Below the pieces are notes generated by a model. It made no database searches and was not told the origin of the DNA. It saw only the letters and a program-made list of their open reading frames with translations. 64,000 nucleotides of DNA from Pseudomonadales bacterium (GTDB lineage: Bacteria > Patescibacteriota > Microgenomatia > UBA1400 > PJMF01): positions 337,892 to 401,891 of the forward strand of contig JACKFW010000001.1 of the NCBI GenBank assembly GCA_020632265.1. The letters run 5' to 3'. Both the position numbers and the translations under genes were made by a program. Below are positions 45,917 to 64,000 of the stretch, in pieces. How positions within the stretch are numbered: the stretch's first letter is position 1; each line of letters begins with the position of its first letter.

Positions 45917-45990
45917 GAAGAAAAGTGGTGCTTCCCATCCATCTGCCTACTCGAACCCTGCGCGAGATGTTTGTGATTATCCCACCTGCC
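45917..45990. repeat. cassette-array repeat, R-module plus divergent T-like tail (most distal copy)
   Basis: gaaaagtggtgcttcccatccatctgcctactcgaacc...gagatgtttgtgattatcccacc. Matches the 61013-61140 copy. Confidence 0.55.
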
Positions 45991-46081
45991 AGTTTATTTT
46001 CCCATCTTTGTATAATTACAAGGAAGTTATCACTAATCGATAGTTCAGTCTCGACTGATGGCTGATGTATATCTTCGTATA

Positions 46082-46786
46082 TTATTTGGGTGAATTTTTA
46101 ATTGCTGAATATGCAGGATTTTCATAACGATAGTTAAATCTGTCTTCGCAAATAACTGGATAAGGTTCATTATCAAATGCTAGGTGAAAATCTTTATCCA
46201 TACTAGCTAAACTTCCAATATTAGCAATAAGTTTCAAAGATTCTGTATGACGATCACTATATAGAAAAATTCTTATATCAAAAGAACCTCGATAATAGTT
46301 ATTTAAATATTCGTAATATTCCTTTTTACTCATGATATTTTTTAACTTTATATTTTCTGGGTCGTTTTCGTCCAGACCATATTGCCAGTTTACCACTTCG
46401 TAGCCTGATTCATTAGAAGGAATTAGAATTGGAAGATATTCATTTTCGATAGCAATATCAATCAATTGCTGTGTATTTCTTCCATATTTCCAACTAATCC
46501 GAGGTTTTGGTTCAGTTGCAGACAGACTCTCAGCCTGCTTCTCAATCTGTCGAAAATGTTCCAATAATCTGAACAGTGCTTTCTCATGTGGTTCTAACTG
46601 AGCCATTAAAGCTTCTCTTTTATCAGCATAGTCATCTTGCTCCACAGTACCAACGACTGCTTTTGATATCCCTGCATCTGGAGTCTCTTTAAATTCATTT
46701 ACCATATCTTGCTCCTTAATAAATACTAATTTCGTACCAATTAGTAGTATATCAAAGAGCAATGTTAAAGAAACAAGAATACTCAA
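46082..46786 (-). CDS. hypothetical cassette protein
   Basis: 234-aa ORF with an N-terminal TM helix. Bounded by repeat copies. Confidence 0.55.
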   Translation of the reverse strand: MSILVSLTLLFDILLIGTKLVFIKEQDMVNEFKETPDAGISKAVVGTVEQDDYADKREALMAQLEPHEKALFRLLEHFRQIEKQAESLSATEPKPRISWKYGRNTQQLIDIAIENEYLPILIPSNESGYEVVNWQYGLDENDPENIKLKNIMSKKEYYEYLNNYYRGSFDIRIFLYSDRHTESLKLIANIGSLASMDKDFHLAFDNEPYPVICEDRFNYRYENPAYSAIKNSPK

Positions 46787-46823
46787 ATTAGAGTGAATTC
46801 AAAAATCTTCTCAAGTGAAAAAA

Positions 46824-46915
46824 GGCTCCCCCCCCCCAACAGGTTGATACTCGAACCAATTTAGTCTGGAAGAAAAATATTGAGAAACCTGTTGTGGGAT
46901 TTTTCTTTGAAAAAA
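46824..46915. repeat. cassette-array repeat, R+T form, with C10 homopolymer
   Basis: ggctcc(c)10aacaggttgatactcgaacc + aatttagtctggaagaaaaatattgagaaacctgttgtgggatttttctttg. Confidence 0.8.
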
Positions 46916-46939
46916 TGGAAAAATATTTATTTTGAAAAT

Positions 46940-47338
46940 TTATTGAAACAGCTTAGCAGACTTTAAACTCAAAGTTTGTAAAGTTGTACCTCTTTCTTCC
47001 AAAACTTCACTAAGTATACTTTCCTCAACATTGCTTAGCTTGGCACTAGGCATATCAGTTGAAAGAAATCTAACAGTTAATCCAAAATATTGAATATCAT
47101 TAATGCTGGGGAATAACTCTGCTGCACATAGATTAATCTTATCACTCACAGATAATTCATCAGGAGATAAAATTTGCATAATTCTCGTTTTTATAATGTT
47201 GGGGCGATCTGGAAATTCCTTCGTAGCACTTTCTTTAGCATTTAAATAATTTTTTTCATCAAATTCCAACCTACTGCCAGATTTGGTTGAAATCATAGCA
47301 ATTTTACCTTGATAGGAAAAAAATTCATAATTACTCAT
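46940..47338 (-). CDS. hypothetical cassette protein
   Basis: 132-aa ORF. Confidence 0.5.
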   Translation of the reverse strand: MSNYEFFSYQGKIAMISTKSGSRLEFDEKNYLNAKESATKEFPDRPNIIKTRIMQILSPDELSVSDKINLCAAELFPSINDIQYFGLTVRFLSTDMPSAKLSNVEESILSEVLEERGTTLQTLSLKSAKLFQ

Positions 47339-47385
47339 ATCAAAACTCCTTAAATATTTCTTATATTATATCAAACAATTAAAAC

Positions 47386-47530
47386 TCGGTTTGAATCCCA
47401 GGCAAACCCGTCCTATTGGGGCATGTATATTAAAAAAAATTGATATATAGATGTAATTAAGCCTATAATTTTAAAGCTCCCCCAACAGGTTGATACTCGA
47501 ACTGAGGAGTGGGTGGAAAGATACTTAAGA
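47386..47530. repeat. cassette-array repeat, full L-S-R form
   Basis: ggtttgaatcccaggcaaacccgtcctattgggg | AT-rich 55 nt | gctcccccaacaggttgatactcgaactgaggagtgggtggaaagatactt. Confidence 0.85.
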
Positions 47531-47604
47531 TTAAATACATTTCAGAAGGAGTATTTAGTTAAATAAACAAAAAATATTTCCAAAAACTTGCTACAATTAA
47601 TTTA

Positions 47605-48231
47605 ATGAACGAAAAAAAATCAGATGATCTTCCTTTCTCACTAAAATCAATTGCATTATTGGTGATTGATATGCAAGTTGACTTTTACTCTAATAATGGC
47701 TCTGCATCAAAAAAAGGTAAGCCCGTCAAGAAAATGCAAGAAATGTCAAAAAAACTCGATTTTTTCATTAAACATTATGGAAAGTTATTCAATCTAATCA
47801 TTTTCACTAAGTATATATCTGACAAATCTATTACTCCCCAAAACTTTCTTAGACTATCCAAAAAAGATGGATATAGTCTTATGTGTCAAAAAGGTAGTGG
47901 ATTAGAAAAAATTGATGGAGTCGAAATTCCAGACTATGCCTTTGTTATAGAAAAACCTCAATTTGATTCATTTGCATATATAAGCCTTTTAAAGATGTTG
48001 CGGGAAAAAGACATAAAAACTCTTGTAATTACTGGTGTGAGAACTGAAATATGTATTGATGCTACTGCAAAGAGAGCTTTCGCCGAAGGATTTGACACTA
48101 TAATACTTCGGGATTTAGTTGGCACATATGACGACAGGCAAAAAATTCAAGATTTTGTATTAGAACTCTTCAATAAGTATTCTGGTTACGTTTTTACAAG
48201 TAATGAATTTATCAAAATGTTTGAGAAATAG
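47605..48231 (+). CDS. isochorismatase-family cysteine hydrolase
   Basis: ALLVIDMQVDF, K, and the LVITGVRTEICIDATAKRAF catalytic-Cys region. It is the only plus-strand gene inside the array. Confidence 0.75.
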   Translation: MNEKKSDDLPFSLKSIALLVIDMQVDFYSNNGSASKKGKPVKKMQEMSKKLDFFIKHYGKLFNLIIFTKYISDKSITPQNFLRLSKKDGYSLMCQKGSGLEKIDGVEIPDYAFVIEKPQFDSFAYISLLKMLREKDIKTLVITGVRTEICIDATAKRAFAEGFDTIILRDLVGTYDDRQKIQDFVLELFNKYSGYVFTSNEFIKMFEK

Positions 48232-48339: not shown

Positions 48340-48460
48340 TCAGTTCGATTCCCGGAATAAGTGGTCTTATCAGGTTTATAATTATTGAGAAAAGATTAAT
48401 ATATTCATAAATTTGCCAATAATTTAATGGCTCGCCATCGTTGACCAAGTTGAAAATTGC
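48340..48460. repeat. cassette-array repeat, divergent full-length copy
   Basis: cagttcgattcccggaataagtggtcttatcagg | AT-rich | ggctcgccatcgttgaccaagttgaaaattgc. About 70% identical to the consensus. Confidence 0.55.
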
Positions 48461-48461
48461 T

Positions 48462-49052
48462 TTACTTGAGATTATCCACAGTTATAATCTTATTAATCAT
48501 AATTTTTGAATCTTTAATGCTGACTTTACGTATTGAAGCCTTTGGTTGATATTCTGCTGTAGGGATATTATATATTTTTATATTATCTGATATCTTTTTT
48601 TTGGAAAAATATACATACATCAAACATAATGGGTCACCATGGGAACAAATTACGATATTTTCATCTTCTGAATGATCGCTAATTAAAGACTTTAAAAAAT
48701 CTACTACTCTTTTATAAATATCATCAGGACTCTCTCCTCCTAAATCATCAATATTTTTAAAAAAAAGAGACCAATCCATTTCCCAATAACCTTGAAAAGC
48801 AGAATGTGTTTCTAGTAATCTTTGATCATAAATAATAGGAATCTTACTATTTGAGATAATTTCACTTGTTTGTTTACATCTTCTAACTGCTGAGGAATAA
48901 ATCTTGCTAATATCTTTAGTTAAAAAATAATTTTGTAACTTTCTTGCTTCATTTTCACCAGCTTGCGAAAGTCGGACGGGCAATCTTCCTACGAGTATTT
49001 GTAAAGGATTATCATATTGAGCATGTCGTACCAAATATATATTTTTTTTCAT
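48462..49052 (-). CDS. histidine phosphatase (phosphoglycerate-mutase-like) family protein
   Basis: IYLVRHAQ (RHG-type motif), a distal His in the ICSHGD region. Confidence 0.6.
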   Translation of the reverse strand: MKKNIYLVRHAQYDNPLQILVGRLPVRLSQAGENEARKLQNYFLTKDISKIYSSAVRRCKQTSEIISNSKIPIIYDQRLLETHSAFQGYWEMDWSLFFKNIDDLGGESPDDIYKRVVDFLKSLISDHSEDENIVICSHGDPLCLMYVYFSKKKISDNIKIYNIPTAEYQPKASIRKVSIKDSKIMINKIITVDNLK

Positions 49053-49094: not shown

Positions 49095-49190
49095 TTCAAT
49101 ATTCGAACTGATTTTGTGCAAAATTTATTGAAGGAAATTTGATTTGAGTAAAATTTGCTTGCCCCATTGGACTCGTTACGGAACGGACAC
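49095..49190. repeat. degenerate repeat fragments (TTCGAACTGA end + R-variant gccccattggactcgttacggaacgg)
   Basis: Partial matches to the L end and to the R module variant seen at 55201. Confidence 0.45.
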
Positions 49191-49404: not shown

Positions 49405-49455
49405 TATATTGAGAAAAAAGTGGCTCGCCCCCAGTAGATGTATTCAGGAACCAAA
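49405..49455. repeat. degenerate R-module fragment
   Basis: gaaaaaagtggctcgcccccagtagatgtattcaggaacc. Compare ttgaggaaaaaagtgatgctcccccgacaggttgttactcgaac. Confidence 0.45.
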
Positions 49456-49541: not shown

Positions 49542-50369
49542 TTAATACTTCAGACTCTGCATAATTTCTTTGGCTTGCTTTAACTCTGGCTTGTTCAAAT
49601 ATTGTTTTGCTTCAATTTCGCTTAATTCTGGTCCACTTAGATTTATATTAGCTGTAGTTAAAATCGCACTGAACCCACCATTGTTTTTGGCAGTAAAGGT
49701 GCCATACTCCATATCTCTCCTCGTCTGAACATCTTCATTTTGAACAGCCACCCAAGGTTTATAAATTTTCCCATCATTAGTTATTGTTCCCATCGCCACG
49801 ACTAAATTTGGAGCACCAGCTATTGGAATCTTTTCAATAATATTAATAAGTGAACAGGATCTGAAATCTGAACCATTTGTTCCAAGTTGAGCTTCTTTGT
49901 CACATCCACCACCTAATCCTTCAATATATGACACCCAAGTCACAACAATGTCTCCACTTGGACTTTGTAAAGAAATCTCGTCTGCTTCTTCCATGTTTGA
50001 TTCAACTTGAGGTTTGATTACAATCCAATCAGAAGGATACTGAAACGTTACTTTTTCAGTCAAAGATGTGTATGTTTCCATTTTAGCATTATTTTCAGTT
50101 GTTAACGAATCATCATTTTCTTTAATATTTGACGCTGTCTCAGGTTGCATCACACGTTCTGATCCATTTGTTGAAAGTTGATTATTATTTTTCTGTTGGC
50201 AAAGATATATCATACTTCCTAGACTTACAACTAATAAAATGCCCAGTATTAAAGTAGCCGTCTTCCAATTGTTTGAAATTGCCCTCTGTTGCACTTGTTC
50301 ACTAATATTCTTGGTTGGTTGTAAAAATTCATTAGCCGATAAAGTAGGTTCTGTTGTGTTATTTTCCAT
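49542..50369 (-). CDS. membrane-anchored hypothetical protein
   Basis: 275-aa ORF with one N-terminal TM helix (WKTATLILGILLVVSLGSMIYL) and an extracytoplasmic domain. Confidence 0.55.
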   Translation of the reverse strand: MENNTTEPTLSANEFLQPTKNISEQVQQRAISNNWKTATLILGILLVVSLGSMIYLCQQKNNNQLSTNGSERVMQPETASNIKENDDSLTTENNAKMETYTSLTEKVTFQYPSDWIVIKPQVESNMEEADEISLQSPSGDIVVTWVSYIEGLGGGCDKEAQLGTNGSDFRSCSLINIIEKIPIAGAPNLVVAMGTITNDGKIYKPWVAVQNEDVQTRRDMEYGTFTAKNNGGFSAILTTANINLSGPELSEIEAKQYLNKPELKQAKEIMQSLKY

Positions 50370-50616
50370 AACTAAATAATAACAGGTTCTAAATAATATA
50401 ACTGAACAAACAATTGAAAAGCCTTAAAGCCCTGTCTGTAAATAGTTTTATTTATATATTGCCTGAAATTAAAAAATGTTTTACTGATTCAAACTAAGAT
50501 GATTAAGCAAGTATTCTCTTTCTCCATCGTCACTTTTTTGCCTATCAATTACTTTTACTATAAGATTATTTTTTTTGCTGTTTTTTCAAAGTGATCTAAT
50601 TCTGACAGTGCAGACA

Positions 50617-51040
50617 TCACCATAAATAGTTTTCCTGTTGGTTGAAAAATAAGTCACTTTCCATAACTTTAATATCTATATCATGTTGTTGAATATTTTG
50701 ACGTGCGTTTTCTACTGCCTTTGGATTAATATCAATCGCGCAACCAGTCGCACCCTGCAAACCAGTCGCATCTTGTAAACCAGTTAAGATTGAGGATGTC
50801 CCCGAACCCGTGGTAACATCAATGATTCTATCTGTTTCACTTACCTCAACATTTGCTACTAAAAGTTTTGTGTCTATGGCTGGTGGAAAAACCCCAGGAT
50901 GTAATATCTATTACTTGAATTAACATCTGAATTGACTTGGTAAAAGCCTTTGCTTTAGCAAAAAAGAATTCTTGGTGTTTTTTAATTTGTTCTTTATCTG
51001 ACATAATACATCTGATTATATCAAGAGTTTGAATGTCCAT
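50617..51040 (-). pseudogene. frameshifted/truncated HemK/PrmC-like SAM-dependent methyltransferase
   Basis: Frame A (50846..51040) gives a 64-aa N-terminal ORF. Frame B (50617-50905) encodes ...GVFPPAIDTKLLVANVEVSETDRIIDVTTGSGTSSILTGL...CAIDINPKAVENARQNI..., which is motif I of N5-glutamine/N6-adenine methyltransferases. The catalytic NPPY half is absent. The frames switch near a G4T5 run (~50893-50905). Confidence 0.5.
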
Positions 51041-51054: not shown

Positions 51055-51185
51055 ACTCGAACCTGTTTACGGAAGCAAGGTTAGTTCGAGCCTAATTTGC
51101 ACCCCCAACAGGTTGTTACTCGAACTAATTTAATCTGGAATCAAAATGTTGAGAAATTTGTTATGGGATTTTTGTTTGAAAATGC
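51055..51185. repeat. cassette-array repeat, short-L + R + T form
   Basis: ctcgaacctgtttacggaagcaaggttagttcgagcctaatttgcacccccaacaggttgttactcgaact + aatttaatctggaatcaaaatgttgagaaatttgttatgggatttttgtttg. Confidence 0.8.
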
Positions 51186-51318: not shown

Positions 51319-51765
51319 TTATTTACTTTTTCGTAAATCTTTTAATATAAAATATTGATTAATAACAGCCTTACTTAGATTCATCAATCCCTCAATTTTA
51401 TATCTAATGTTTTCATCTATATTTGGAATATTTTCCCGATATTTTTCTGTAAATTTATCTTTAACTTTAGACTCAGCATCTTCCCTACTTTTTGATCCCA
51501 TACAAATCAATCCAATTGCTCCAATCATCTTAGTTACTTCACTTTCATCTAAACCTATAATTTCTGAAATTTCACTAAAAATTGGTTTATTTTTTCCTGT
51601 TATGATTCTTAACAAATTATTAAAAATCCCTTTATTAGCAAATTCATAATATTCTTTAATTAGCTCGTTTAACCTTTTATTAGCTGCTTCTTTCTCTTCT
51701 TTTTCTTTTAAAGCTTTTATAATTTCTTCCTCAACATTATAATATCTTTTAGATTCTTTAAACAT
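51319..51765 (-). CDS. hypothetical cassette protein
   Basis: 148-aa ORF. Charged and helical. Confidence 0.5.
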   Translation of the reverse strand: MFKESKRYYNVEEEIIKALKEKEEKEAANKRLNELIKEYYEFANKGIFNNLLRIITGKNKPIFSEISEIIGLDESEVTKMIGAIGLICMGSKSREDAESKVKDKFTEKYRENIPNIDENIRYKIEGLMNLSKAVINQYFILKDLRKSK

Positions 51766-51964: not shown

Positions 51965-52055
51965 AAAAAGGTTGATTTATCAATCTAAATAGCATAAAGC
52001 TCCCCCTGATGGATACGTTAAGGAACGGGTATAAAGATGGGTTGATAGGAATTAC
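51965..52055. repeat. partial repeat (S+R modules, no L)
   Basis: gaaaaaaggttgatttatcaatctaaatagcataaagctccccctgatggatacgttaaggaacgggtataaagatgggttgatagg. Confidence 0.6.
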
Positions 52056-52132
52056 AGCGAGTGAAGCCAATGGATTTGCTGAGAAGCTTGTAAAATTACT
52101 GGAAACAAGTATTTATGCTTTTTGACGCAAAA

Positions 52133-52287: not shown

Positions 52288-53400
52288 CTAACCTGTTTCA
52301 GGTAACCCAAGATCAATGTCTGCGAGCAATTTTATTTCTTCAGCAATTCCTTCAAGGAGTCTGCCTGATCCAGCAAGAGATTTTGCTCGAATGTTTTGGG
52401 AGATAGAAATAAGTTCGTTAAGTTTCGAAGAGTTCTCGATTGGCAAAGTTTCAATTTTATAATCTTTGGTCAAGTAACTTATGTGCCATTTTCCATTTTC
52501 AAATACCAAATCAATATTTGATCTACCAGACAATATTCTAATATTAGATAAGTGTTTGGTGCTTATTTCAAAATCCATCAGACTTAGCAGTTTATTAGTG
52601 TATATTGATAAATGATGGCCGGCACTTAGTTTTATTTCAGTCCCTTCTTTAAATTGAACTTCTTCATGATGTTTAAGCCTAATTGCAAGACCTTTTCGTA
52701 ATTCATTAGCCTTTCTCTTAACCCAAAAATTCAACTTTTGATCAAACTGTTCTTGATTAAAAATCTTAACTAGAAATGCCAACTGTTTTCCTGTTAACTC
52801 ATATCTATTCCCTTTTTCAAGCAAATGATGAGCTGTTGCCAAATAATAGGTATGATAGTTTATAGTTGTTTCCACCTTTTTACCATCAATTAAAAATTTT
52901 ATTGCTCTTTCGGGTGTTTCATCGGCAATCAATTCAAAATCATTTCGAGATTCACCCTGAATTTTAGCAGCCTTAATCGGATTTAAAAATTGAAATCTTG
53001 CTCCTGTTCCATGCGAAGAAACTCCAGGAAATCCAGGTAAATCGGGCATATTTTCTAAAGCTGATTGTACTTCTGATTCATATTTTTTTCTTGTTTTTTC
53101 ATCAACTTCCCAATACTCAGCACCTCTAAATACACTCTGCATAGTCTCATCAATAATTTTCTTTTGCAAATCGGCATGGAAAGAAGCTGAAACGGCTAAG
53201 CAGTTTAACACGTGGCTAGCTCGTTCCCAATCTACTCCGGCTTCAAGTAACATTTTTGTGTCACTTGCGTATACTTCAGAAATTTTTCTGCCTCCAAATA
53301 TTCCCTCTAACGAAGAATCCTCAAGCAAGTCATCATCGTTAGGAACGCCAACAAATCTGGGCAAATCAGAAGACGTTATGTATTTATAACCCCGCATCAC
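52288..53400 (-). CDS. hypothetical cassette protein
   Basis: 370-aa ORF with no recognised motif. Confidence 0.55.
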   Translation of the reverse strand: MMRGYKYITSSDLPRFVGVPNDDDLLEDSSLEGIFGGRKISEVYASDTKMLLEAGVDWERASHVLNCLAVSASFHADLQKKIIDETMQSVFRGAEYWEVDEKTRKKYESEVQSALENMPDLPGFPGVSSHGTGARFQFLNPIKAAKIQGESRNDFELIADETPERAIKFLIDGKKVETTINYHTYYLATAHHLLEKGNRYELTGKQLAFLVKIFNQEQFDQKLNFWVKRKANELRKGLAIRLKHHEEVQFKEGTEIKLSAGHHLSIYTNKLLSLMDFEISTKHLSNIRILSGRSNIDLVFENGKWHISYLTKDYKIETLPIENSSKLNELISISQNIRAKSLAGSGRLLEGIAEEIKLLADIDLGLPETG

Positions 53401-53912: not shown

Positions 53913-53968
53913 ACTCCCCCGACAGGTCGTTACTCGAACTAGGGGATGGGTGGAAAGTTACTTATTCC
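53913..53968. repeat. cassette-array repeat, short R-only form
   Basis: ctcccccgacaggtcgttactcgaactaggggatgggtggaaagttacttattcc. Its end overlaps the stop codon (TAA 53962-53964) of the upstream gene. Confidence 0.8.
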
Positions 53969-54270: not shown

Positions 54271-54299
54271 ATAAGAAAAGTATAACAAAATTTCAATAA

Positions 54300-54433: not shown

Positions 54434-54494
54434 AGATTGTGTCTCAAACTAAAGATCTCAATATTATTATAATATTTAATATTCAAAATAAAAT

Positions 54495-55581: not shown

Positions 55582-57234
55582 TTATGCTTCAGACTTCATC
55601 TTCACATCACCTTGACAAACAAGCATACCACTAGAATTAATAAGCGAATAAACAACACTAATTTCTTGATTTGCTTCTAATGGAGTTATCGCAAAGGAAA
55701 ATGCATCCCATTTTCGTAACATAGATAGATTCATCTCAGGCATGTTTTCAGTTTGTCCACTTGCTATTGAGCTAGCTGTTGAGGTCACGCCAATAGAATA
55801 ATTACCAAAATGATTCAACAAAACATATAATTTTTGCTCAGTATCATCATATGGCCAAATTGTATCTAATACAGATATTTCAACAATAATTTCATTCTTT
55901 ACTCCAACCTTCAGATCCATAAGTGAACCTCCATCGACTCTTCTTTCTCTCATTCGAATTTGAATAGTTGGATTTTCTAAATCTCCTTGTGTATCCTCTT
56001 CCATAATTTTTTTAAACATGGTATGAAGAGCTTCTACAAAAGAAGCTTCAATTTTAGAAGGTGAAGATTTCCAATATGATCTTGTTTTTGAAGTCAAGTA
56101 GTGGTCGTAATTTCTTCTAAGAGTAATTACTCTATCTGTATCAATATCTTGTAATTCTGATTTAATCTCGCTGAGTAATGCTCGACGAGACTCTGTTGAT
56201 GTTGCTTCTCGTAATTTGGATTCATACGTACGTAAACGTGTTAAATAATGTTTTTTTTCTTTAAGTGAATCAGCAATATTTTTTACACCTTCCCAACTAT
56301 CAGGACAGCGCAAGAAATCACAATAGGTGCCTTTACCCCAATATGAATCGATCATTTTGGCCAGCTGAGGAATGAGTTTGAGATCTATACGAGCCTTAAG
56401 TGCTAATTCTAGGAAATTAGTTTGTTCTTCTTCAGGAATCTCACTTAATAACAATTCGAAAACGCTTCCCGCGTAATTTTGTAATGATAAACTCACCATT
56501 CTTTCATTGTTATCTCTATTTTCTATATGACTATAACGAGTAGGTGCATCAACCCTAGACGCAAAATGAATAGTACCTTCTGATAAAATAGAATTATTTT
56601 GATAGACAGTTTCATTTTCATTCACTTCAGTTTTGTATGCTGGATCTTTAGTTAAATCTAATAGAAATTGTGTACTTTCGTAGCTTGAAATACCTTTTTC
56701 AAGCAACCAAGGGGAAAAAGTATTAGTTGCATTTACTACTTGAAGTCCAATCCTAACTTCTCTAGCTTCATTTCTTGTTGCAGTAATCACCCTTTCTCCT
56801 ATTGATTCTAAAGTAACTCTATAAATAATCCTTGCTTGATCGAGCACAGAAAGAGATTTTTGTAGAAATACTATAGAAACCCCGTTATAAATACTCGTAT
56901 TTGCATCAAGATTTATGTAATTTCCACCACCTAAAGTTTCAAACATACGTGAAATTTCTTCTTGGTGTTCCCAATCAATGAGTAATAATTCTGGAATAGT
57001 AATAGATGACAGACCTAAAGCATCTAACTGTAACTGCACTTTCTCGCGAGCGATAGTAACGGCTTGTACTAATCTCGGGTCAGCATTTTCACTTTTGAAT
57101 AATTCTAATATTGCTTTGCGTTGTGCAATAATAGCATCTGAATTTTCTCTAGTTGCATCTACAAGCTCTTTACGATCATTGTAACCTAATAAATTATCAG
57201 AACCCAATAGATTAATTATATATTCAGATTTCAT
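55582..57234 (-). CDS. hypothetical cassette protein (550 aa)
   Basis: Long ORF with no recognised motif. Confidence 0.6.
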   Translation of the reverse strand: MKSEYIINLLGSDNLLGYNDRKELVDATRENSDAIIAQRKAILELFKSENADPRLVQAVTIAREKVQLQLDALGLSSITIPELLLIDWEHQEEISRMFETLGGGNYINLDANTSIYNGVSIVFLQKSLSVLDQARIIYRVTLESIGERVITATRNEAREVRIGLQVVNATNTFSPWLLEKGISSYESTQFLLDLTKDPAYKTEVNENETVYQNNSILSEGTIHFASRVDAPTRYSHIENRDNNERMVSLSLQNYAGSVFELLLSEIPEEEQTNFLELALKARIDLKLIPQLAKMIDSYWGKGTYCDFLRCPDSWEGVKNIADSLKEKKHYLTRLRTYESKLREATSTESRRALLSEIKSELQDIDTDRVITLRRNYDHYLTSKTRSYWKSSPSKIEASFVEALHTMFKKIMEEDTQGDLENPTIQIRMRERRVDGGSLMDLKVGVKNEIIVEISVLDTIWPYDDTEQKLYVLLNHFGNYSIGVTSTASSIASGQTENMPEMNLSMLRKWDAFSFAITPLEANQEISVVYSLINSSGMLVCQGDVKMKSEA

Positions 57235-57435: not shown

Positions 57436-57476
57436 AGCTCACTCACTCCCATCTTGGACTCTTTGCGGAACGGGTA
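57436..57476. repeat. degenerate R fragment
   Basis: gctcactcactcccatcttggactctttgcggaacgggtatg. Confidence 0.5.
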
Positions 57477-57596
57477 TGTAAATAAATCTCTAAAATATAT
57501 CAAAGATTATGATGTGAGTATAATTATGAGTGAATTACAACATATACATATAACTAATTAATTATTTCTCCTAAATTTATTCCTAACTTATCTTTA

Positions 57597-57628
57597 GCCA
57601 TTGGACTCGTTCAAGAATGGCAACCAGT
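57597..57628. repeat. degenerate R fragment
   Basis: agccattggactcgttcaagaatggcaacc. Confidence 0.35.
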
Positions 57629-58038: not shown

Positions 58039-58107
58039 AAAAAAGTGATGCTCCCCCGACAGGTCGTTACTCGAACTAGGAGGTGGGTTGGGAATGTCTT
58101 ATTTCAA
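58039..58107. repeat. cassette-array repeat, short R-only form
   Basis: aaaaaagtgatgctcccccgacaggtcgttactcgaactaggaggtgggttgggaatgtcttatttc. Abuts the stop of gene 58115..58573. Confidence 0.8.
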
Positions 58108-58114
58108 AATAAAG

Positions 58115-58573
58115 CTATTTTGGTTCAATCCTATAAAACATCAGAGGTTGCTTGTCACTAATAGGAGCAAATCTAGGTTTTCCATTTTCCCATTGCCCAA
58201 ACTCATAATGAACTCCATTTATTTCACCTAAATACAAAGCTGCATGCCATGGAAATCCACTAAAAGGATGTTGATATACAACAATATTTGAGTTTCCTCT
58301 TTTTCCTCTATCATCTTTACCAACTACACCCATAGCTTTTAAAGTCCCGTGTTGTGCAGAACCATAATCATCAATAAATTTATCAATGCTTACTGAAATG
58401 TTTGATTCTTGAAGTCCAAGGAGATACATTACTAGCCCTGAACAAACCGAGTGTTCATGATCTTTACTTTTCAACTGTTCTTTGACTCTATTAAAAACCT
58501 CTTTGCCAAATATAGTCTCAACTTTTTTTAGTTTTTCATTGTCGTGGATTGCTATTTCTTTTCTCATACTCAC
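58115..58573 (-). CDS. hypothetical cassette protein (possible Cys/His hydrolase)
   Basis: 152-aa ORF. The conserved-looking HSVCSG and WHAALYLG segments hint at a papain-like or permuted Cys-His fold. Speculative. Confidence 0.5.
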   Translation of the reverse strand: MSMRKEIAIHDNEKLKKVETIFGKEVFNRVKEQLKSKDHEHSVCSGLVMYLLGLQESNISVSIDKFIDDYGSAQHGTLKAMGVVGKDDRGKRGNSNIVVYQHPFSGFPWHAALYLGEINGVHYEFGQWENGKPRFAPISDKQPLMFYRIEPK

Positions 58574-58605
58574 AAAGTATACCAGAGAATAATAACTCAG
58601 TTCGA

Positions 58606-58740
58606 GTACCAGGCTATCCTGTCCTATCGGGGGTATTTGTGTGAAAAAAGATTGATAAATAGCTATAAATAAGCCTATAATTTCAAAGCTCCCCGAGTTG
58701 GTCGCTACACGGATAGAGAGGTGGGTTAGACAATTCTTGT
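58606..58740. repeat. cassette-array repeat, full L-S-R form
   Basis: cagttcgagtaccaggctatcctgtcctatcgggggt | atttgtgtgaaaaaagattgataaatagctataaataagcctataatttcaaa | gctccccgagttggtcgctacacggatagagaggtgggttagacaattc. Confidence 0.85.
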
Positions 58741-58849: not shown

Positions 58850-59581
58850 TCAAAGTAAATCTAAGGATAATTTATTATCCTCCCAATGTGAATTTTGTAA
58901 AACCAGGGTTTTTTTATATTCGTAAAGACTAGAACCTGAAAACTCATTAGTTGCGAAGAGTAACCTCAATTGATCTAATTTATTAGGATCGCTAGAACTA
59001 AATGCGTCTACTATTTCTTGCCAATACTCTGGGCGTTCTTTTATTCGTGTGCTAAATACTGAGGGTAATCTTAATTTGCCAAAAAACGCGTCAAGTGCTC
59101 CTTGATACCAATTTGGCAAACTTCCATCTGGTCTGAAACGAACAGCATTATCTATCCAACGAAATCTTGGTGGTGTAGCCATGCGATCTATAACTTCTAT
59201 CCATAACATATTGCTACAGGTGTTATTTGTGGGATTGTATACATGAATAAACCCTCTATTTTTCTTTATTCCTGGAATAAATGGTGTTTTGTCTTCAACA
59301 TATTGCAAAGCGGTAGGACTCGGATTTTTTGAATAAACTCTATTATATTCCTCAATTGAATATACTTTTGGAAGCATAACAAAAACTAAAAATTTTGATC
59401 CAAAAATGTATTCCATTTCTTTCGGAAATCCTTCTAGTAAGATTTCGTGAGGAGTCAAGATTTCGTCTGGTTCTAAAACTTCTGCATTCGATAAAGGTTG
59501 AAGACTGGATTCCACAGAAGGTGGTTCTGAATTTATATTTATCCTTACTTTAGAGAAAAATTCATCTGCATGTTCATTCAT
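58850..59581 (-). CDS. hypothetical cassette protein
   Basis: 243-aa ORF. Confidence 0.55.
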   Translation of the reverse strand: MNEHADEFFSKVRININSEPPSVESSLQPLSNAEVLEPDEILTPHEILLEGFPKEMEYIFGSKFLVFVMLPKVYSIEEYNRVYSKNPSPTALQYVEDKTPFIPGIKKNRGFIHVYNPTNNTCSNMLWIEVIDRMATPPRFRWIDNAVRFRPDGSLPNWYQGALDAFFGKLRLPSVFSTRIKERPEYWQEIVDAFSSSDPNKLDQLRLLFATNEFSGSSLYEYKKTLVLQNSHWEDNKLSLDLL

Positions 59582-59655: not shown

Positions 59656-59705
59656 CCCTCCCCCGACAGGTCGTTACTCGAACTAGGAAGTGGATCTCTA
59701 ACTAT
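59656..59705. repeat. cassette-array repeat, short R-only form
   Basis: ccctcccccgacaggtcgttactcgaactaggaagtggatctcta. Overlaps the stop (TAG 59698-59700) of the GDPD-like gene. Confidence 0.8.
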
Positions 59706-60405
59706 TTAGGTATTTACTCGCAAATGCAATATCATTAACTAGGACTCCATTTATTGCCAAGCTTACTAACCAGTCTAACTTCTGCTCATCAACATCTCCA
59801 GCAGTTCTTGGTTGTAATTCTGTCGCTTTACGTCCTGGAGTTACCCAAACTTCTAATCCTAATTCTTGAATTGCTTGAACTCTTTGCTTAGTAAGATCTT
59901 TTTCCCAAAGTCTGAAATACTTACCACCTTTTTGCGCATACTCTACGTATGAATCGGGAGCAGAAAATAAAGCTAGTGTTTGAACTTCTGGATTAAGCGA
60001 AATAATAAAACTAAAATCATCCATATTTCTTACCGCGATAATAACTCTTGTTAAATCTGATCTTAAATCATTTATTATCTTTTCAAATAACTCTTTGGAT
60101 GGCTGCTTAAAATCTAGTAGTATTTTTATGTTTTGCGGAATTTCATTCAACATTTCTTTAACTCTGGGGAAGTTATGTCCTTGCTGTAATTGTTCTATCA
60201 CGGCCTCATTGGAAAAAGTTCCAAATTGTGAGCTAATTCCACTTGGATGAAAACATATAAATTCACCTGTTCTAGGGTGCTCTACAACATCCATTTCTAT
60301 AATACTTGGATTATATTTAACTGCTTCTAGAAAACTTTGTTCAGTATTTTCTGGATATTTGGCTGAGTATCCACCGTGGGCTATTAGTTTTATTTCTGTA
60401 TTCAT
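59698..60405 (-). CDS. glycerophosphodiester phosphodiesterase (GDPD)-like protein
   Basis: LIAHGGYSAKYPENTEQSFLEAV...EMDV...H resembles the GDPD N-terminal HR(G)..PENT..AF...E.D motif, with substitutions. Confidence 0.45.
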   Translation of the reverse strand: MNTEIKLIAHGGYSAKYPENTEQSFLEAVKYNPSIIEMDVVEHPRTGEFICFHPSGISSQFGTFSNEAVIEQLQQGHNFPRVKEMLNEIPQNIKILLDFKQPSKELFEKIINDLRSDLTRVIIAVRNMDDFSFIISLNPEVQTLALFSAPDSYVEYAQKGGKYFRLWEKDLTKQRVQAIQELGLEVWVTPGRKATELQPRTAGDVDEQKLDWLVSLAINGVLVNDIAFASKYLNS

Positions 60406-60407: not shown

Positions 60408-60986
60408 CTATATATAAATTGTTACAGTTTCAAACTCATTTAGTACAATAATTGGAAGATCTGAATTTTCTTTCAACAAAAGTAACTTTTTATCTTTCTT
60501 TTTCTCAATATCCCAATGACATAATGCTTGTATTGATAATAGTCCAACACCTTTATGCACCGTATCTTCATCTTGATCTTCTAAAGATAGAACGTAACTT
60601 TCTGATGCTAAAAATGCCCCCATTGAACTTCCTGCATATATTTTGTCATCAAGTCTGTTTTTTAACTCAGTTAATTCCGAGTAGACAGCCTCAATTGGTT
60701 GCGAGTCACCTGCGGCCACATAGAGCACATCTGAGATTTCTAATTTTGAGAACAAATCTTTAGGATCATTTGCAACTAGTATTTCAACTTCTTTGTTTGT
60801 GTTGTTTTTTATATAGGTAGTATCTCTTTGGATTAATGCTTCCCACTCAGATTTTTCTCTTGAAAAGTAACAAAGAAGAATTGTTACTTTGTCTTTTTCA
60901 ATCAAATTAGTAAATTGAGAGAAGAAAAAGTTATTACCAGGATGTTGTTTTGAGGTTTTCCCTCCGTGTAAAAGAAATGTTGTCAT
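60408..60986 (-). CDS. peptidase S51 (dipeptidase E/cyanophycinase-like) family protein
   Basis: LLHGGKTS...YVAAGDS...YAGSSMGAFL fits the S51 GxSAG nucleophile region. Co-cassette with the GDPD-like gene (2-bp gap). Confidence 0.4.
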   Translation of the reverse strand: MTTFLLHGGKTSKQHPGNNFFFSQFTNLIEKDKVTILLCYFSREKSEWEALIQRDTTYIKNNTNKEVEILVANDPKDLFSKLEISDVLYVAAGDSQPIEAVYSELTELKNRLDDKIYAGSSMGAFLASESYVLSLEDQDEDTVHKGVGLLSIQALCHWDIEKKKDKKLLLLKENSDLPIIVLNEFETVTIYI

Positions 60987-61012: not shown

Positions 61013-61140
61013 TGGTTCGAGTCCTATTGGGCTCTATATAATTTACTTGAGGAAAAAAGTGGTGCTCCCCGAACAGGTCACTACACGAACTAGTTACCTC
61101 AAGAGAGAAAAAGTGAGGAGATTTGTTATGGGATGATACC
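61013..61140. repeat. cassette-array repeat, short-L + R + T-variant form
   Basis: ggttcgagtcctattgggctctatataatttacttgaggaaaaaagtggtgctccccgaacaggtcactacacgaactag + ttacctcaagagagaaaaagtgaggagatttgttatgggatgatacc. Confidence 0.8.
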
Positions 61141-61170
61141 TGAGAATGTCGTCCTTCAGGTAGCTATGAT

Positions 61171-61800
61171 TTACTTGATCCCTATTGCTATCCGATATGC
61201 CCTGTCCATTTGCTGTGTAGCATACTTTTTGTTCAGCTCATCATATCTAGCTTGATAGCGCGCTGGAACATCATCTACCACTTCAGCTTTTGATCTTATT
61301 TCTCGTATCCATCCGCTAACTTCGGTTCTTTCACCTTCGTCACCATACTCTTCTAGAACTCTCAGGAGAATATCCAGATACATGACTCCCAACCCACCCT
61401 CCACAGCTACTTCACGGGCAAAGGTAGGTGGAGTTGCAAGAACCGCTCCAGCATGAGTAGCTTGCATACGACCCACCTCAGACGATTGCGCATTGAGCTT
61501 GATTAGCTGCTCTCTTATATCTAAATGCATAGTGCCGTCTGAATTTATCAGGTTTCTGCGAACAGCTTCACGAAACCATTTCATGTTTTGCTCATCCACA
61601 GTTGCATCTGCAAATCTAGCTGCAAACTTAGCAAGAGGAAAAGCATTCATCCCCATCTCTTGAATTGAGCGAGCGATAACTGCCTGAGGATCAAATTGGT
61701 TTAAAATTTCATTTGACATAGTTATGGTGTATTCTATCACATGATACAAAAATGTGAGAATACACAGTGACTCTCCTAGTTCGTGTCCCAGATCAGCCAT
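61171..61800 (-). CDS. hypothetical protein (GC-rich cassette)
   Basis: ORF of 182-209 aa; the ATG at 61717-61719 (MSNEIL...) is the plausible start. Local GC is clearly higher than the genome background. Confidence 0.5.
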   Translation of the reverse strand: MADLGHELGESLCILTFLYHVIEYTITMSNEILNQFDPQAVIARSIQEMGMNAFPLAKFAARFADATVDEQNMKWFREAVRRNLINSDGTMHLDIREQLIKLNAQSSEVGRMQATHAGAVLATPPTFAREVAVEGGLGVMYLDILLRVLEEYGDEGERTEVSGWIREIRSKAEVVDDVPARYQARYDELNKKYATQQMDRAYRIAIGIK

Positions 61801-61833
61801 CCTAATAGGGGTATGCAGGTGGAATTAGATGTA

Positions 61834-62115
61834 TCACTCATTGTTGCAGTGCAGAACATAATTCTGGAGCAAAATTCCGAACATAAGATACCGCTCTGAT
61901 GATTCAAGCGAAATGTAATCGTCAGATCTAGCCGAGATGTCTGTGATTATTGAATGAATATATTTTGGAAGCTGGTGTGATTGTAGAGGTACCAACCATC
62001 GTTTTGCCTCCTTAAGAAAACGGGTAGCACCCTGAGTTGAACCGCGCTGAGACAAAGCCACGACCCGAAACAGATCGTTAGAAAGGGAGCCGATGAGTAG
62101 CTGGGTATCACTCAT
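61834..62115 (-). CDS. hypothetical protein (GC-rich cassette)
   Basis: 93-aa ORF immediately upstream of, and co-oriented with, 61171..61800. Confidence 0.45.
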   Translation of the reverse strand: MSDTQLLIGSLSNDLFRVVALSQRGSTQGATRFLKEAKRWLVPLQSHQLPKYIHSIITDISARSDDYISLESSERYLMFGILLQNYVLHCNNE

Positions 62116-62215
62116 ACCAATTGTTTAAAAAAACACTTGGACAATTCTAAAAATTTCTTCTTAAATGAATTTACGCAAACTTCGGGTTGTTCATTTCTAT
62201 CAGGGTATATTGAAC

Positions 62216-62434
62216 TCAATCGTGCTCAATTGTGACTGCGATGACAATCCTTTGTCCTTGGCCATGATCTACAGCTGTAAATTTTACAACTGGGTGTAAA
62301 TCTTTCAAGCTTTCAAGCTTTTGATTTATAACTATAGTAGCGTCATAAGCGAAACCCTCAAAAACAAGTACTTCATTTGTACGAATCATTCCTTGTTCTA
62401 CTGGATGATATCCTGATTCAACTTGACTGTTCAT
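62216..62434 (-). CDS. small hypothetical protein
   Basis: 72-aa ORF. Confidence 0.4.
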   Translation of the reverse strand: MNSQVESGYHPVEQGMIRTNEVLVFEGFAYDATIVINQKLESLKDLHPVVKFTAVDHGQGQRIVIAVTIEHD

Positions 62435-62492
62435 AATTCTCCTTTTCTTTATTATATTACAAATTATTGTAACAGATATTTATTTTTTGGTT

Positions 62493-62635
62493 CAGTTCGA
62501 GTCCCAGGCGATCCTGTCCTATTTGGGGTATATTAGTGAAAAAAGATTGATATATAGTCATAGTAAGCCTATAATTTAAAAGCTCCCCCAACAGGTTGTT
62601 ACTCGAACTAGGAGGAGGTGGATAGAAAGTTACTT
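62493..62635. repeat. cassette-array repeat, full L-S-R form
   Basis: cagttcgagtcccaggcgatcctgtcctatttggggt | atattagtgaaaaaagattgatatatagtcatagtaagcctataatttaaa | agctcccccaacaggttgttactcgaactaggaggaggtggatagaaagttacttgtttc. Abuts the stop (62639) of the MFS gene. Confidence 0.85.
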
Positions 62636-62638
62636 GTT

Positions 62639-63826
62639 TCAAGAATCTTTATCAGTAGTCAACAACTTATAAGTAAGGGGTACTACACTTAGTACAGTGA
62701 ACACTCCCAACAAGGAATACATTGTTCGTATTCCAAATTGAGAAATTACAGGAGCAGAAATAGTTGTCATTACAACATATACAAAACCAATTGCTAAACT
62801 TAAAAATGAAATTGCAGTTGCTCTATATTTACTAGAAAAAGCTTTATTTGTTAGTGGAGAAAGTAATATCCATCTTGCAGTAGTTGCGATCATAGCTGCC
62901 TGAATAAACGGAATACCCCAGAATCCATCCAACTTAATTCCAGGTAAATATCCAATTAACATAATAACTGGAAAAAATAATATCCTTGATCTTTCTGAAA
63001 AAATCCTCGTATCCTGCAGAATAAGGCGAATCAACAATACGTTAATGAGTCTCATACCAGCTGTCAGGATGCCTCTTAAAGAATCAGATGCAATAAACTC
63101 AACCATCATAAACTCGTTAAAATACAAAGTGCTAGACCATGCAATACCTGCTACAGCAATATAAAATAAAGATAAATACCTTGTATACTGGCTTTTAAAT
63201 GCTTCTTTTGAGCCATTCTTTATCTGCAACACATAATTCTTTAAAGTAAAAGTTTCAGAATCAATATGTGGTTCTTTATAAAACAAAATACATATAGAAC
63301 CAAGAAATAAACTCAGTCCATACAACAAGTACGGCAAGAACACCCACTGTTCAAATAATAATCCTCCTGTTGCAGTAGCAAGAATAAGACCAACTTGATA
63401 AATTAGATCTCCATTGCCGTAAACTTTATCGTATTCATTTTCTTTATCAGCTTGCTTATAAGTGTCATATAACAATGCTTCTTCTGAACCAGATCGAAAA
63501 GAATCGTTTAATCCAACCATCAAAGCTAATATGAGGAAGTGATAAAAGTTTGTTGCCAAAGGAAATAGAAAAAAACTTGCTGCACCAATAATCCAACCAA
63601 CAAGATTTGTATTTTTTCTTCCAATAAGATCTGCCAAAGCTCCACTTGGAAGTTCTAAAAACATTTGTGAAAGATATTGAATTGTAACTAAATATGAAAT
63701 TTCAGCTACAGTAATTTTTCCTTGATAATAGACAATCCAAATTGGAATCGTGAAAACAAGTGAGTGCAAAAACTGGGTAATATAAAAAATCCAGGTGTTT
63801 CGCTTATAAACTGGTAAATCTTTCAT
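62639..63826 (-). CDS. MFS transporter
   Basis: 395-aa ORF with about 12 TM helices and the MFS motif region (LADLIGRKNT). Confidence 0.7.
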   Translation of the reverse strand: MKDLPVYKRNTWIFYITQFLHSLVFTIPIWIVYYQGKITVAEISYLVTIQYLSQMFLELPSGALADLIGRKNTNLVGWIIGAASFFLFPLATNFYHFLILALMVGLNDSFRSGSEEALLYDTYKQADKENEYDKVYGNGDLIYQVGLILATATGGLLFEQWVFLPYLLYGLSLFLGSICILFYKEPHIDSETFTLKNYVLQIKNGSKEAFKSQYTRYLSLFYIAVAGIAWSSTLYFNEFMMVEFIASDSLRGILTAGMRLINVLLIRLILQDTRIFSERSRILFFPVIMLIGYLPGIKLDGFWGIPFIQAAMIATTARWILLSPLTNKAFSSKYRATAISFLSLAIGFVYVVMTTISAPVISQFGIRTMYSLLGVFTVLSVVPLTYKLLTTDKDS

Positions 63827-63859
63827 TCAAGTATTATATCAAAGGAATATGTGCAAAAT

Positions 63860-64000
63860 TAGTTCGAATCCCAGACCAACTTGTCCTATCGGGGGTATTT
63901 GTGTGAAAAAAGATTGGTATATAAATCTAGATTAGTATTATGAGATAAAAGCTCCCATCACCTGAAATCCTACAAGTGTCCATTAAGGCGATAATTCAAG
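63860..64000. repeat. cassette-array repeat (L-S modules, divergent R), cut by window end
   Basis: tagttcgaatcccagaccaacttgtcctatcgggggt | atttgtgtgaaaaaagattggtatataaatctagattagtattatgagataaa | agctcccatcacctgaaatcc... Confidence 0.75.

Follow-up and report, generated by a model that had tools for sequence, protein, structure and literature searches.

Which process assembled a run of functionally unrelated genes, nearly all of them on one strand and separated by copies of a single repeat, in the last 18 kb of a 64,000-nucleotide stretch of contig JACKFW010000001.1? A first-pass annotation of this stretch (hereafter, the window) described the region as an integron-like cassette array. Its broader claim, that of a mobile cassette array with a conserved site-specific recombination site and integron-like cargo, is supported by our analysis, and its assignment to the integrons is weighed below. 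From comparison with related genomes, we consider it probable that the region forms the distal and middle portions of a cassette array built by a large serine recombinase (LSR) and anchored at the 3′ end of a tRNA-Asn(GUU) gene.

Repeat finding, looser matching and direct reading located 19 junctions of one repeat family, all in a single orientation, from 45.93 kb to the window end, and the array extends past the window end at junction 19. All multi-copy repeat families longer than 30 nt in the whole window lie between 45.9 and 64 kb, and repeat finding and pattern search gave no copy in positions 1–45 kb. A degenerate 24-nt core pattern, CCCCCRACAGGTYGWTACTCGAAC, had eight matches at 0–3 mismatches (0.00 expected from shuffles), every one on the plus strand and between 46.8 and 62.6 kb. 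The real open reading frames (ORFs) between the junctions are on the minus strand with the sole exception of 47605–48231 on the plus strand. Their stop codons fall within the conserved tail of the repeat or at most ~10 bp from it, and the next gene begins 12–60 bp past the left arm, with a single exception of 226 bp. In all these respects (a repeat at nearly every gene boundary and absent from the early window, the strand of the genes in the ORF list, and the spacing of stops and starts) the first-pass annotation was accurate.

Its description of the repeat itself as an imperfect palindrome did not hold. The universal element is a non-palindromic core of 26 bp, CTCCCCCRACAGGTYGTTACTCGAAC, or its Rvar relative. 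Written degenerately, the core is CTCCCCC[G/A]ACAGGT[C/T]GTTACTCGAAC and the Rvar form is CTCCCCTTGTTGGACTCGTTACGGAACGG; a third subtype occurs at 58689. Pooling 15 non-redundant junctions from every source showed almost no information to the left of CTCCCCC and an abrupt rise there to nearly the maximum, which persists over 26 positions. An inverted left arm accompanies the core in about half of the junctions (five A-type and about four B-type), and at least 10 of the 19 have none. The A-type left arm, GTTCGAATCCCAGGC..GTCCTATCGGGGG, lies about 55 nt upstream of the core, and the B-type left arm, GGTTCGAGTCCTATTGGGATC, about 30 nt upstream. The module to the left of the core is a long, short or B centre, or is missing, and to its right stands tail i (TAGGAGGTGGGTGGAAAGTTACTTA), tail B (..AATGTTGAGAAATTTGTTATGGGATTTTTG) or an Rvar tail; the left and right modules combine independently of each other. 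The junctions are as follows.

45931–45956, plus strand: junction 1, the distal array end, with the end of a B-type centre, GAAAAGTGGTG, before a degenerate core, CTTCCCATCCATCTGCCTACTCGAAC
46831–46915, plus strand: junction 2, with core CCCCCCCAACAGGTTGATACTCGAAC and tail B (..AATATTGAGAAACCTGTTGTGGGATTTTTC)
47389–47530, plus strand: junction 3, full A-type, with left arm (47389–47421), core (47477–47502) and tail i to about 47530
47440–47469, plus strand: TTGATA-N18-TATAAT in the long centre of junction 3
48341–48460, plus strand: junction 4, a degenerate full copy with left arm-like AGTTCGATTCCCGG.., a centre-like stretch and core-like CTCGCCATCGTTGACCAAG.. at 48431; it matches the L003 junction at 74% (blastn)
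49159–49186, plus strand: junction 5, with Rvar-type core TTGCCCCATTGGACTCGTTACGGAACGG
49424–49452, plus strand: junction 6, with core variant CTCGCCCCCAGTAGATGTATTCAGGAACC and, before it, GAGAAAAAAGTGG (direct reading)
51079–51185, plus strand: junction 7, with a short left arm-like GTTAGTTCGAGCC, core (51100–51125) and tail B
52001–52094, plus strand: junction 8, with an Rvar-type core and a long conserved tail
53914–53966, plus strand: junction 9, with consensus core CTCCCCCGACAGGTCGTTACTCGAAC and tail i
54300–54432, plus strand: junction 10, full B-type, with left arm GGTTCGAGTCCTATTGGGATC (tRNA-like spacing), core (54351–54376) and tail B; its B centre ends GAGGAAAAAAGTGATG, and the plus strand holds a 34-codon micro-ORF, M-LPRQVVTRTNLIWKTNVEKFVMGFLLERDCVSN
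55113–55296, plus strand: junction 11, with A-type left arm (55113–55145), Rvar core (55203–55230) and tail
55165–55194, plus strand: promoter-like site in the long centre of junction 11
57446–57473, plus strand: junction 12, with degenerate Rvar-type core CTCCCATCTTGGACTCTTTGCGGAACGG
57596–57620, plus strand: junction 13, a degenerate Rvar-like fragment, AGCCATTGGACTCGTTCAAGAATGG
58039–58104, plus strand: junction 14, with B-centre end AAAAAAGTGATG, consensus core (58051–58076) and tail i
58600–58730, plus strand: junction 15, with A-type left arm, a promoter-like site at 58652–58681 in the long centre and a core of the third subtype, CTCCCCGAGTTGGTCGCTACACGGATAGAGAGGTGGGT, at 58689; this subtype is also present in locus L029
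59658–59708, plus strand: junction 16, with consensus core and partial tail i
61014–61134, plus strand: junction 17, B-type, with left arm GGTTCGAGTCCTATTGGGCTC, B centre (..GAGGAAAAAAGTGGTG), diverged core (61065–61090) and B-like tail
62495–62635, plus strand: junction 18, full A-type, with left arm (62495–62527), core (62583–62608) and tail i
62547–62575, plus strand: promoter-like site in the long centre of junction 18
63862–63980, plus strand: junction 19, with A-type left arm (63862–63894), a centre-like stretch and a divergent right side, CTCCCATCACCTGAAATCCTAC.., from 63952

The junctions that do carry a left arm form a two-stemmed, imperfect inverted repeat whose internal loop is asymmetric, and at junction 3 an inner-stem pair has changed on both sides, from C-G to T-A (direct reading). 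These features resemble the attC sites of integrons, whose architecture had been recognised in the repeat. We found no RYYYAAC/GTTRRRY boxes, and the outer boxes, AGTTCGA/TCGAACT, are the palindrome of a tRNA T-loop; the GTT and AAC triplets taken for R-boxes belong to the palindromic tRNA T-loop sequence TTCGAA. The two arms are complementary because both are copies of a tRNA 3′ end. Folding six full copies as single strands gave free energies between -5 and -14 kcal/mol and z-scores between +0.3 and -2.6; these weak folds did not consistently favour one strand. A T-arm in the arms of the repeat was rejected as well, since the T-loop-like GTTCGAATCC forms none.

The tRNA in question was identified through related loci, designated here by L numbers. 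The core pattern occurs in five stretches from four Patescibacteria genomes among 185,579 species representatives, and in twelve metagenome stretches. Viral contigs (IMG/VR) contained none, on which ground we rejected a viral origin of the site. Each genome with the core has only one or two such stretches and, as far as seen, one locus. Four short contigs from other assemblies (L001, L008, L027 and L028) are identical to parts of the window and end at repeats. Only the repeats are common to the window and the related stretches, and the genes between them differ.

In eight loci from at least four lineages, the co-oriented repeats begin at the 3′ end of a tRNA-Asn(GTT) gene. This gene is intron-free and lies exactly at the array start in L010 and L015 (ARAGORN), and is interrupted by a group I intron in L003, L005, L007, L012, L013 and L018. 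The intron corresponds to Rfam RF00028 (73–114 bits; L003 1212–1525, L005 about 2350–2690, L020 11563–11860). The tRNA is downstream of rpoD in L003, L005, L010 and L015, the last of which also shows dnaG upstream; a 225-aa helix-turn-helix (HTH) protein between rpoD and the tRNA in L005 was dropped as a candidate, being unconserved elsewhere. The terminal junction of L003 consists of left arm, long centre and tRNA; the tRNA, which lies on the opposite strand, replaces the core. Read on the window’s plus strand, the tRNA end, CTCCCCCGGTAGGATTCGAACC, and the core, CTCCCCCGACAGGTCGTTACTCGAAC, are identical in their first 8 nt, and both contain the motif TCGAAC, shifted outward by 5 nt in the core. 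The core begins, at its left edge, with what is the final base of the tRNA gene. Since CTCCCCCG and TCGAAC are all that repeats and tRNA have in common, the repeats are not an exact displaced tRNA 3′ segment.

ARAGORN found no tRNA in the window, and Rfam searches at gathering and E-value thresholds gave no relevant known RNA there. By analogy with the related arrays, we would expect the window array to terminate shortly past 64 kb at a minus-strand tRNA-Asn(GUU) gene, with rpoD and dnaG after it. It was on this side that an intI gene and attI had been predicted; in the related arrays tRNA-Asn and rpoD occupy that position, and the recombinase, where present, is at the distal end. The sites are conserved across Microgenomates and Parcubacteria lineages.

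The distal ends of the related arrays point to the enzyme. In L003, L016 and L017 the last core is entered by a plus-strand ORF that encodes the C-terminal portion of an LSR, with a weak Zn_ribbon_recom match and recombinase-domain sequence with stop codons upstream. L010 has a shorter remnant of the LSR gene at the same position and L029 carries another; within arrays, recombinase remnants occur only at the distal end. A database search returned 57 relatives of the LSR fragment in genomes of the candidate phyla radiation (CPR). Full-length relatives combine Resolvase, Recombinase and Zn_ribbon_recom domains (PF00239, PF07508 and PF13408) and carry the catalytic motif VIFCRVSSKEQ, and their N-termini match the catalytic domains of TnpX and TP901-1 integrase in the PDB.

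Members of this family are joined to the same point in different surroundings. The LSR gene is fused straight to the tRNA 3′ end, with no cassettes between, in L020 (a complete Collierbacteria genome), L024 and L025, where ..TGG is followed directly by CTCCCCCGCGTGGACTCGAACC. In L017/L003/L016, L010 and L029 the fusion partner is an Rfull core at the far end of the array, and in L019 and L030 it is an Rvar-type core. In L026 and several database proteins the LSR keeps a conserved native tail of ~30 residues, with the consensus L(E/A)(R/G)W(Y/D)(E/D)F..W...PE(W/L)...V..LL. The C-termini of the family all diverge right after ..RP(I/V)W-L: at least 10 run on as antisense tRNA (‘DSNLEP’), three as LP(R/Q)QVVTRTRRWVENY, corresponding to the core with tail i, and an Rvar-tail C-terminus is found in three database proteins and in the L019 and L030 genes. 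In all, a serine recombinase gene is joined to the crossover point in at least eight independent contexts. In L024, the native tail also exists as a detached copy, about 6 kb upstream of the LSR gene and about 7.5 kb from the LSR–tRNA junction. Such an arrangement is what the attL and attR ends of a 7.5-kb integrated element with its attP inside the LSR 3′ end would give; this attP has imperfect dyad symmetry (direct reading).

The recombinase frame stays open for 19–45 codons through every Rfull junction, and tail variation in that frame is largely synonymous or conservative. In several junctions ATG, GTG or TTG abuts CTC (GTGATG directly before CTC at 54351 and 58051), which yields plus-strand micro-ORFs of about 20–45 codons, such as MLPRQVVTRTNLIWKTNVEKFVMGFLLERDCVSN. 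Their peptide, LPRQVVTRT.., is homologous to the serine recombinase C-terminal extension. Like those in junctions of L005, L010 and L006, the following micro-ORFs occur in the window.

45925–46070, plus strand: micro-ORF
54348–54452, plus strand: micro-ORF
58048–58161, plus strand: micro-ORF
61059–61136, plus strand: micro-ORF

The 5-nt displacement between tRNA and core has a counterpart in LSR biochemistry, in which the motif bound by the zinc ribbon domain is 5 bp nearer the centre in attB (bp 11–19) than in attP (bp 16–24; Rutherford et al. 2013, PMC3783163). With counting begun at the T of the shared CT, the motif [TC]T[CA]G[AG]AC has its first base at position 14 in four different tRNA-Asn sites, and at 18–19 in Rfull cores and in two of three recombinase-native P′ sites, the third having a near-match, ATAGAAC, at about 19; the ..GAAC element of Rvar is similarly displaced. 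The tRNA end thus behaves as an attB half-site (B′) and the array cores as attP-type half-sites (P′). The predicted crossover coincides with all mosaic breakpoints, which map to the shared G-CT-C block and leave several choices of dinucleotide within it. At 26 bp, the near-invariant block is about the length of one LSR half-site (about 20 and about 25 bp expected). A symmetric left half-site was sought in the cassette centres and rejected, none being convincing; by direct reading, short centres contain TTAGA[G/T]C at about the attB-type distance and long centres lack it.

One cassette shows the exact limits of the unit. A two-gene PNPOx and GNAT cassette stands next to the tRNA in L003 (labelled Pacebacteria), whereas in L006 (labelled Woesebacteria) it lies within the array. 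Its two proteins are 94% and 86% identical in amino acids between the loci, and its DNA about 90% identical over about 1.1 kb. The homology runs from GCTCCCCC of the upstream core to GCTCCCCC of the downstream junction, past which L003 continues with the tRNA body and L006 with a further core and its tail B; on the upstream side the two flanks have nothing in common. From this alignment, the mobile unit consists of the right part of a core, tail, genes, left arm and centre, with exchange inside GCTCCCCC. Otherwise, cassette content is unrelated between arrays that share the site.

We propose that the right half of each junction (plus strand) is the P′ half-site of the CPR LSR family, its 26-bp core corresponding to the tRNA-Asn 3′ end (B′) with the outer recognition motif [T/C]TCGAAC shifted 5 bp outward. 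Strand exchange would take place in the shared block G-CT-C(CCCC), which corresponds to the last base or bases of the tRNA gene. A cassette unit comprises the P′ core, a tail, one or more genes with their own promoter, an optional inverted left arm and a ‘centre’, and it would insert and excise as a whole through recombination at the crossover block, a reaction that the gene fusions suggest is catalysed by the LSR. New cassettes lacking a recombinase probably enter serially at the tRNA-proximal site. Such insertion would keep the tRNA intact, push older cassettes outward and leave the recombinase gene or its remnant at the far end; it would also leave P′-type cores between cassettes and mosaic junctions, matching the observed pattern, from which we infer the direction of array growth. 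The attP of the recombinase would lie inside the last roughly 30 codons of the LSR gene, so that integration would swap the C-terminal tail of the enzyme, and on this reading tail i, tail B and the Rvar tail are diverged copies of the LSR 3′ coding segment.

Several observations weigh against this proposal. All array-adjacent LSR genes are truncated, and those of nearly full length, which sit at other sites, carry frameshifts; the activity of the family is therefore unproven, and the arrays may be fossils. A tblastn search of the window with 57 LSR homologs detected neither an LSR gene nor a piece of one, and none lies at the distal end of the array at 45.9 kb, where no LSR remnant was seen in the flank (44.2–45.9 kb). 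At the upstream core of the PNPOx and GNAT cassette, an 8-nt patch after CCCCC differs between the two loci (AACAGGTT versus GCTGGGGT), more than a plain 2-bp exchange at CT can account for, and this cassette is the only one common to two arrays. The cassette left halves (long, short and B centres) are unlike the recombinase’s own left half-site, and the canonical LSR model predicts no recombination of such mixed sites without a directionality factor. Finally, the inverted left arm carries tRNA-like elements at +15 spacing (A-type) or +0 (B-type) without crossover bases, an arrangement for which the LSR model does not account; the left arm may be an accessory binding site.

Further observations concern the recombinase family. 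The near-full-length LSR genes each have a single-base frameshift in the coiled-coil region, at differing positions (L020 11150–11230, L019 about 5130, L024 about 7378), and the frameshifted protein of L020 is present on more than 24 contigs; these genes could be pseudogenes or share a recurrently slippery region. The recombinase remnant of L029 has a small, excisionase-like HTH_17/MerR-type gene immediately before it on the upstream side (3397–3609), and another lies within the recombinase-bearing element of L020 (6404–6583). From its domain, this type of protein is a candidate directionality factor. In L023 (2185–11097), a member of the LSR family stands at the contig end beside a REP_ORF2-G2P rolling-circle Rep-like gene and is adjoined by two large RVT_1 genes, one of them fused to a trypsin-like domain; L023 is possibly a different type of mobile element that uses a recombinase of this family.

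The possibility of fossil arrays can be stated as a full alternative, in which one or a few large LSR elements at tRNA-Asn decayed, the cassettes being deletion remnants that never moved as single units and the cores attL-type scars. Besides the damaged LSR genes, it draws on the complete LSR elements of at least 7.5 kb that are integrated at the same tRNA site and on the core-adjacent tails, which it too reads as diverged recombinase 3′ ends. Decay does not account for a precise 1.1-kb unit in two arrays with the crossover block at both edges, or for conserved non-recombinase left modules (the centres) common across lineages. Nor does it fit with 19 well-conserved sites in 18 kb that retain a near-invariant 26-bp half-site, which speaks for continued selection on the site. 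We consider this alternative unlikely.

Quite unlikely, too, is a set of tandem tDNA islands, in which a tyrosine integrase, possibly acting in trans, would insert tycheposon- or satellite-like elements at the tRNA-Asn 3′ end and leave displaced tRNA fragments. The anchoring at a tRNA 3′ end and the derivation of the repeats from that end are what such islands would produce, and tRNA genes are typical targets of tyrosine integrases (PMC4383910). However, identity with the tRNA extends over only about 8 bp and is followed by a +5-bp rearrangement that is near-identical across lineages, no tyrosine integrase was found among the checked ORFs, and it is a serine recombinase gene that is fused to the crossover in the at least eight contexts described above.

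We regard it as highly unlikely that the repeat is a generic intergenic element, either of the REP (repetitive extragenic palindromic), REPIN or MITE (miniature inverted-repeat transposable element) kind or a portable promoter or terminator module, spread by transposition or gene conversion with no role in gene capture. The palindromic full copies do resemble REP doublets, and the repeats do lie at gene boundaries. Moreover, the four best sigma70-type matches on the plus strand of the region (11/12) fall in long centres, as a near-consensus TTGATA-N17/18-TATAAT that faces the crossover and the tRNA and is thus antisense to most cassette genes and directed into the sole plus-strand gene; short and B centres lack this element. 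A terminator role was rejected, the scan giving 8 terminators against 8.7 expected and none consistently at the junctions. Against a generic repeat stand the strict co-orientation, the restriction to one tRNA-anchored locus with no copy in the other 45 kb (the genome-wide scatter that the first-pass annotation named as a sign of such an element was not seen in the window or in the genomes that share the core), the L003/L006 breakpoints exactly in the core, the fusion of the recombinase gene to the core, and the absence of any associated RAYT or transposase.

The least credible reading is the original one, a sedentary integron or cluster of attC sites lacking integron-integrase (CALIN) with attC hairpins and an IntI encoded beyond 64 kb: it has the co-oriented, small, unrelated cassettes and the typical cargo on its side, but no recombinase domain of any kind was found by Pfam in 44 tested window ORFs (the reported absence of a tyrosine recombinase being correct as far as it went) and no IntI or Phage_integrase-type domain in the checked ORFs of related loci (own Pfam scans or precomputed Pfam matches), the boxes are absent, the hairpin is missing from at least 10 of the 19 junctions and folded weakly on both strands in the six full copies, Rfam gave no match, and tRNA-Asn and rpoD stand at the predicted intI end of related arrays. 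The annotation’s fallback, a distinct undescribed cassette system with its own hairpin site, came close: the system with its own site and cassettes stands and the hairpin does not.

The cassettes between the junctions are listed next.

45957–63861, minus strand: all cassettes, with ~21 ORFs in 18 units (from ORF list, GC content and Pfam)
46082–46786, minus strand: cassette ORF
46940–47338, minus strand: cassette ORF
47605–48231, plus strand: isochorismatase gene, the only plus-strand gene, within normally oriented boundaries and downstream of the promoter-like centre of junction 3
48462–49052, minus strand: His_Phos_1 ORF (Pfam)
49542–50369, minus strand: cassette ORF
51319–51765, minus strand: cassette ORF
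52288–53400, minus strand: cassette ORF
53962–54288, minus strand: cassette ORF with its stop codon within the tail of junction 9
54495–54887, minus strand: cassette ORF
55582–57234, minus strand: cassette ORF
58115–58573, minus strand: cassette ORF
58850–59581, minus strand: cassette ORF
59698–60405 and 60408–60986, minus strand: GDPD and S51 genes (Pfam; S51 weak)
61171–61800 and 61834–62115, minus strand: high-GC gene pair (from GC content)
62216–62434, minus strand: cassette ORF
62639–63826, minus strand: MFS ORF (Pfam)

Pfam thus bears out the unrelated functions reported at first (isochorismatase, His_Phos_1, GDPD, a weak Peptidase_S51, and MFS); the remaining ORFs have no family. What had been called an inverted cassette is a plus-strand gene inside a cassette whose own boundaries are normally oriented: the gene is flipped and the cassette is not. 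The cassette of higher GC is real (0.42 at 61–62 kb against about 0.29–0.36 in most neighbours). It encodes two proteins, of 209 aa and 93 aa, with no Pfam family, and its GC content suggests a recent arrival from a different donor. Several short ORF fragments at 50400–51040 look like a decayed methyltransferase-type gene, as the first-pass annotation had proposed. Across arrays, the accessory cargo includes GNAT, glyoxalase, NUDIX, SDR, EamA, S51 and methyltransferase genes. Peptidase S51 is cargo in three independent arrays (window 60408–60986, L010 9075–9653 and L029 4252–4878) with different neighbours in each; the window and L010 proteins are 58.6% identical in amino acids.

The window has roughly 31% GC and CPR-like gene content. 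The protein of ORF 44458–44988 is identical to an NCBI entry (H6772_01805) labelled ‘Pseudomonadales bacterium’, a label that is probably wrong in view of the GC and gene content. Outside the array, a 2959-aa ORF on the minus strand (32166–41045) has a GC content of 0.38–0.45 against about 0.30 elsewhere in the window and precomputed matches to SdrD_B, LTD and SpaA-type repeats; with a sortase gene directly after it (31471–32166), it is probably a giant sortase-anchored surface protein.

Set beside known systems, the arrays are best read as integron-like in function and as similar in construction to composite islands of the staphylococcal cassette chromosome (SCC). SCC and SCCmec elements are inserted by LSRs at the 3′ end of a housekeeping gene, rlmH (orfX), and form tandem elements with repeats of the integration site. 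They and the Enterococcus cassette chromosome share with the present arrays an LSR, an intact conserved target gene entered at its 3′ end and accessory cargo, and SCC tandems likewise include recombinase-less elements with short direct repeats of the integration site between them. SCC differs in its rlmH target and Ccr recombinases, where these arrays have tRNA-Asn and the CPR LSR family, which has Pfam domains in common with Ccr, and its elements are few and of 5–60 kb, whereas the cassettes here are mostly single genes of 0.4–2 kb, with 19 sites in 18 kb. The location of attP inside the recombinase’s own 3′ coding end and the CPR/Patescibacteria hosts also set these arrays apart. Integrons similarly hold co-oriented arrays of exchangeable, unrelated cassettes at one locus, with one site copy each, with comparable cargo (GNAT, glyoxalase, NUDIX) and, in CALINs, without a working recombinase. 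Integrons, however, rely on the tyrosine recombinase IntI and folded attC sites, whereas these arrays have a serine recombinase and apparently double-stranded, tRNA-derived half-sites, a tRNA anchor opposite the recombinase end, and cassettes that appear to carry their own promoters.

The phage LSRs (LI/A118, TP901-1, phiC31 and Bxb1) resemble the CPR family in having a resolvase catalytic domain, a recombinase domain and a zinc ribbon with coiled coil, in the 5-bp rule for attP and attB, and in an int gene beside attP. They differ in that here the crossover is inside the recombinase ORF, the C-terminal roughly 30 residues change upon integration, many P′-type sites follow one another in tandem, the left halves of mini-elements without a recombinase are unrelated, and the target is a tRNA. 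Arrays of tDNA islands or tycheposon type share insertion at a tRNA 3′ end that spares the tRNA, tandem accumulation and degraded or satellite members, but use tyrosine integrases and true displaced tRNA fragments, in place of which we find +5-bp half-sites and a linked serine recombinase. SSV1-type integrases are split by their own attP, and the mycobacteriophages BPs and Brujita have attP inside the repressor gene. As in these elements, the attP core is within coding sequence and the C-terminus differs between the free and integrated states; here, however, it is a serine recombinase that is affected, and the exchange is confined to the extreme C-terminus.

In the literature library searched, no paper described integrons or serine-recombinase cassette arrays of this kind in CPR. 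The system could conceivably be a true serine-recombinase counterpart of the integron, widespread in CPR bacteria, an idea that we put forward only tentatively: tRNA-Asn would be a permanent dock, single-gene cassettes with a portable attP-type half-site each would pass between Patescibacteria classes, and recombinase tails would be rewritten, with each docking cassette giving the LSR a new tail or, from junctions in which ATG abuts CTC, a 20–35-residue micro-protein. If this supply of tails is real, recombinase activity or directionality would be coupled to the state of integration. Natural sets of attP-type and attB-type half-sites that obey the 5-bp rule, and a recombinase that rewrites its own C-terminus as it reacts, would both be of interest to those who seek to understand and engineer the directionality of large serine integrases. 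The arrays would extend the accretion logic of SCC to single-gene cassettes and a tRNA target and, if the counterpart reading is true, would represent a second, mechanistically independent integron principle, based on a serine recombinase and double-stranded half-sites in place of a tyrosine recombinase and folded attC. The genomes of CPR/Patescibacteria are tiny, few of their mobile elements have been described, and little is understood of how these bacteria gain accessory genes; a dedicated gene-capture locus at tRNA-Asn, if true, would offer a general route for accessory genes across Microgenomates and Parcubacteria.

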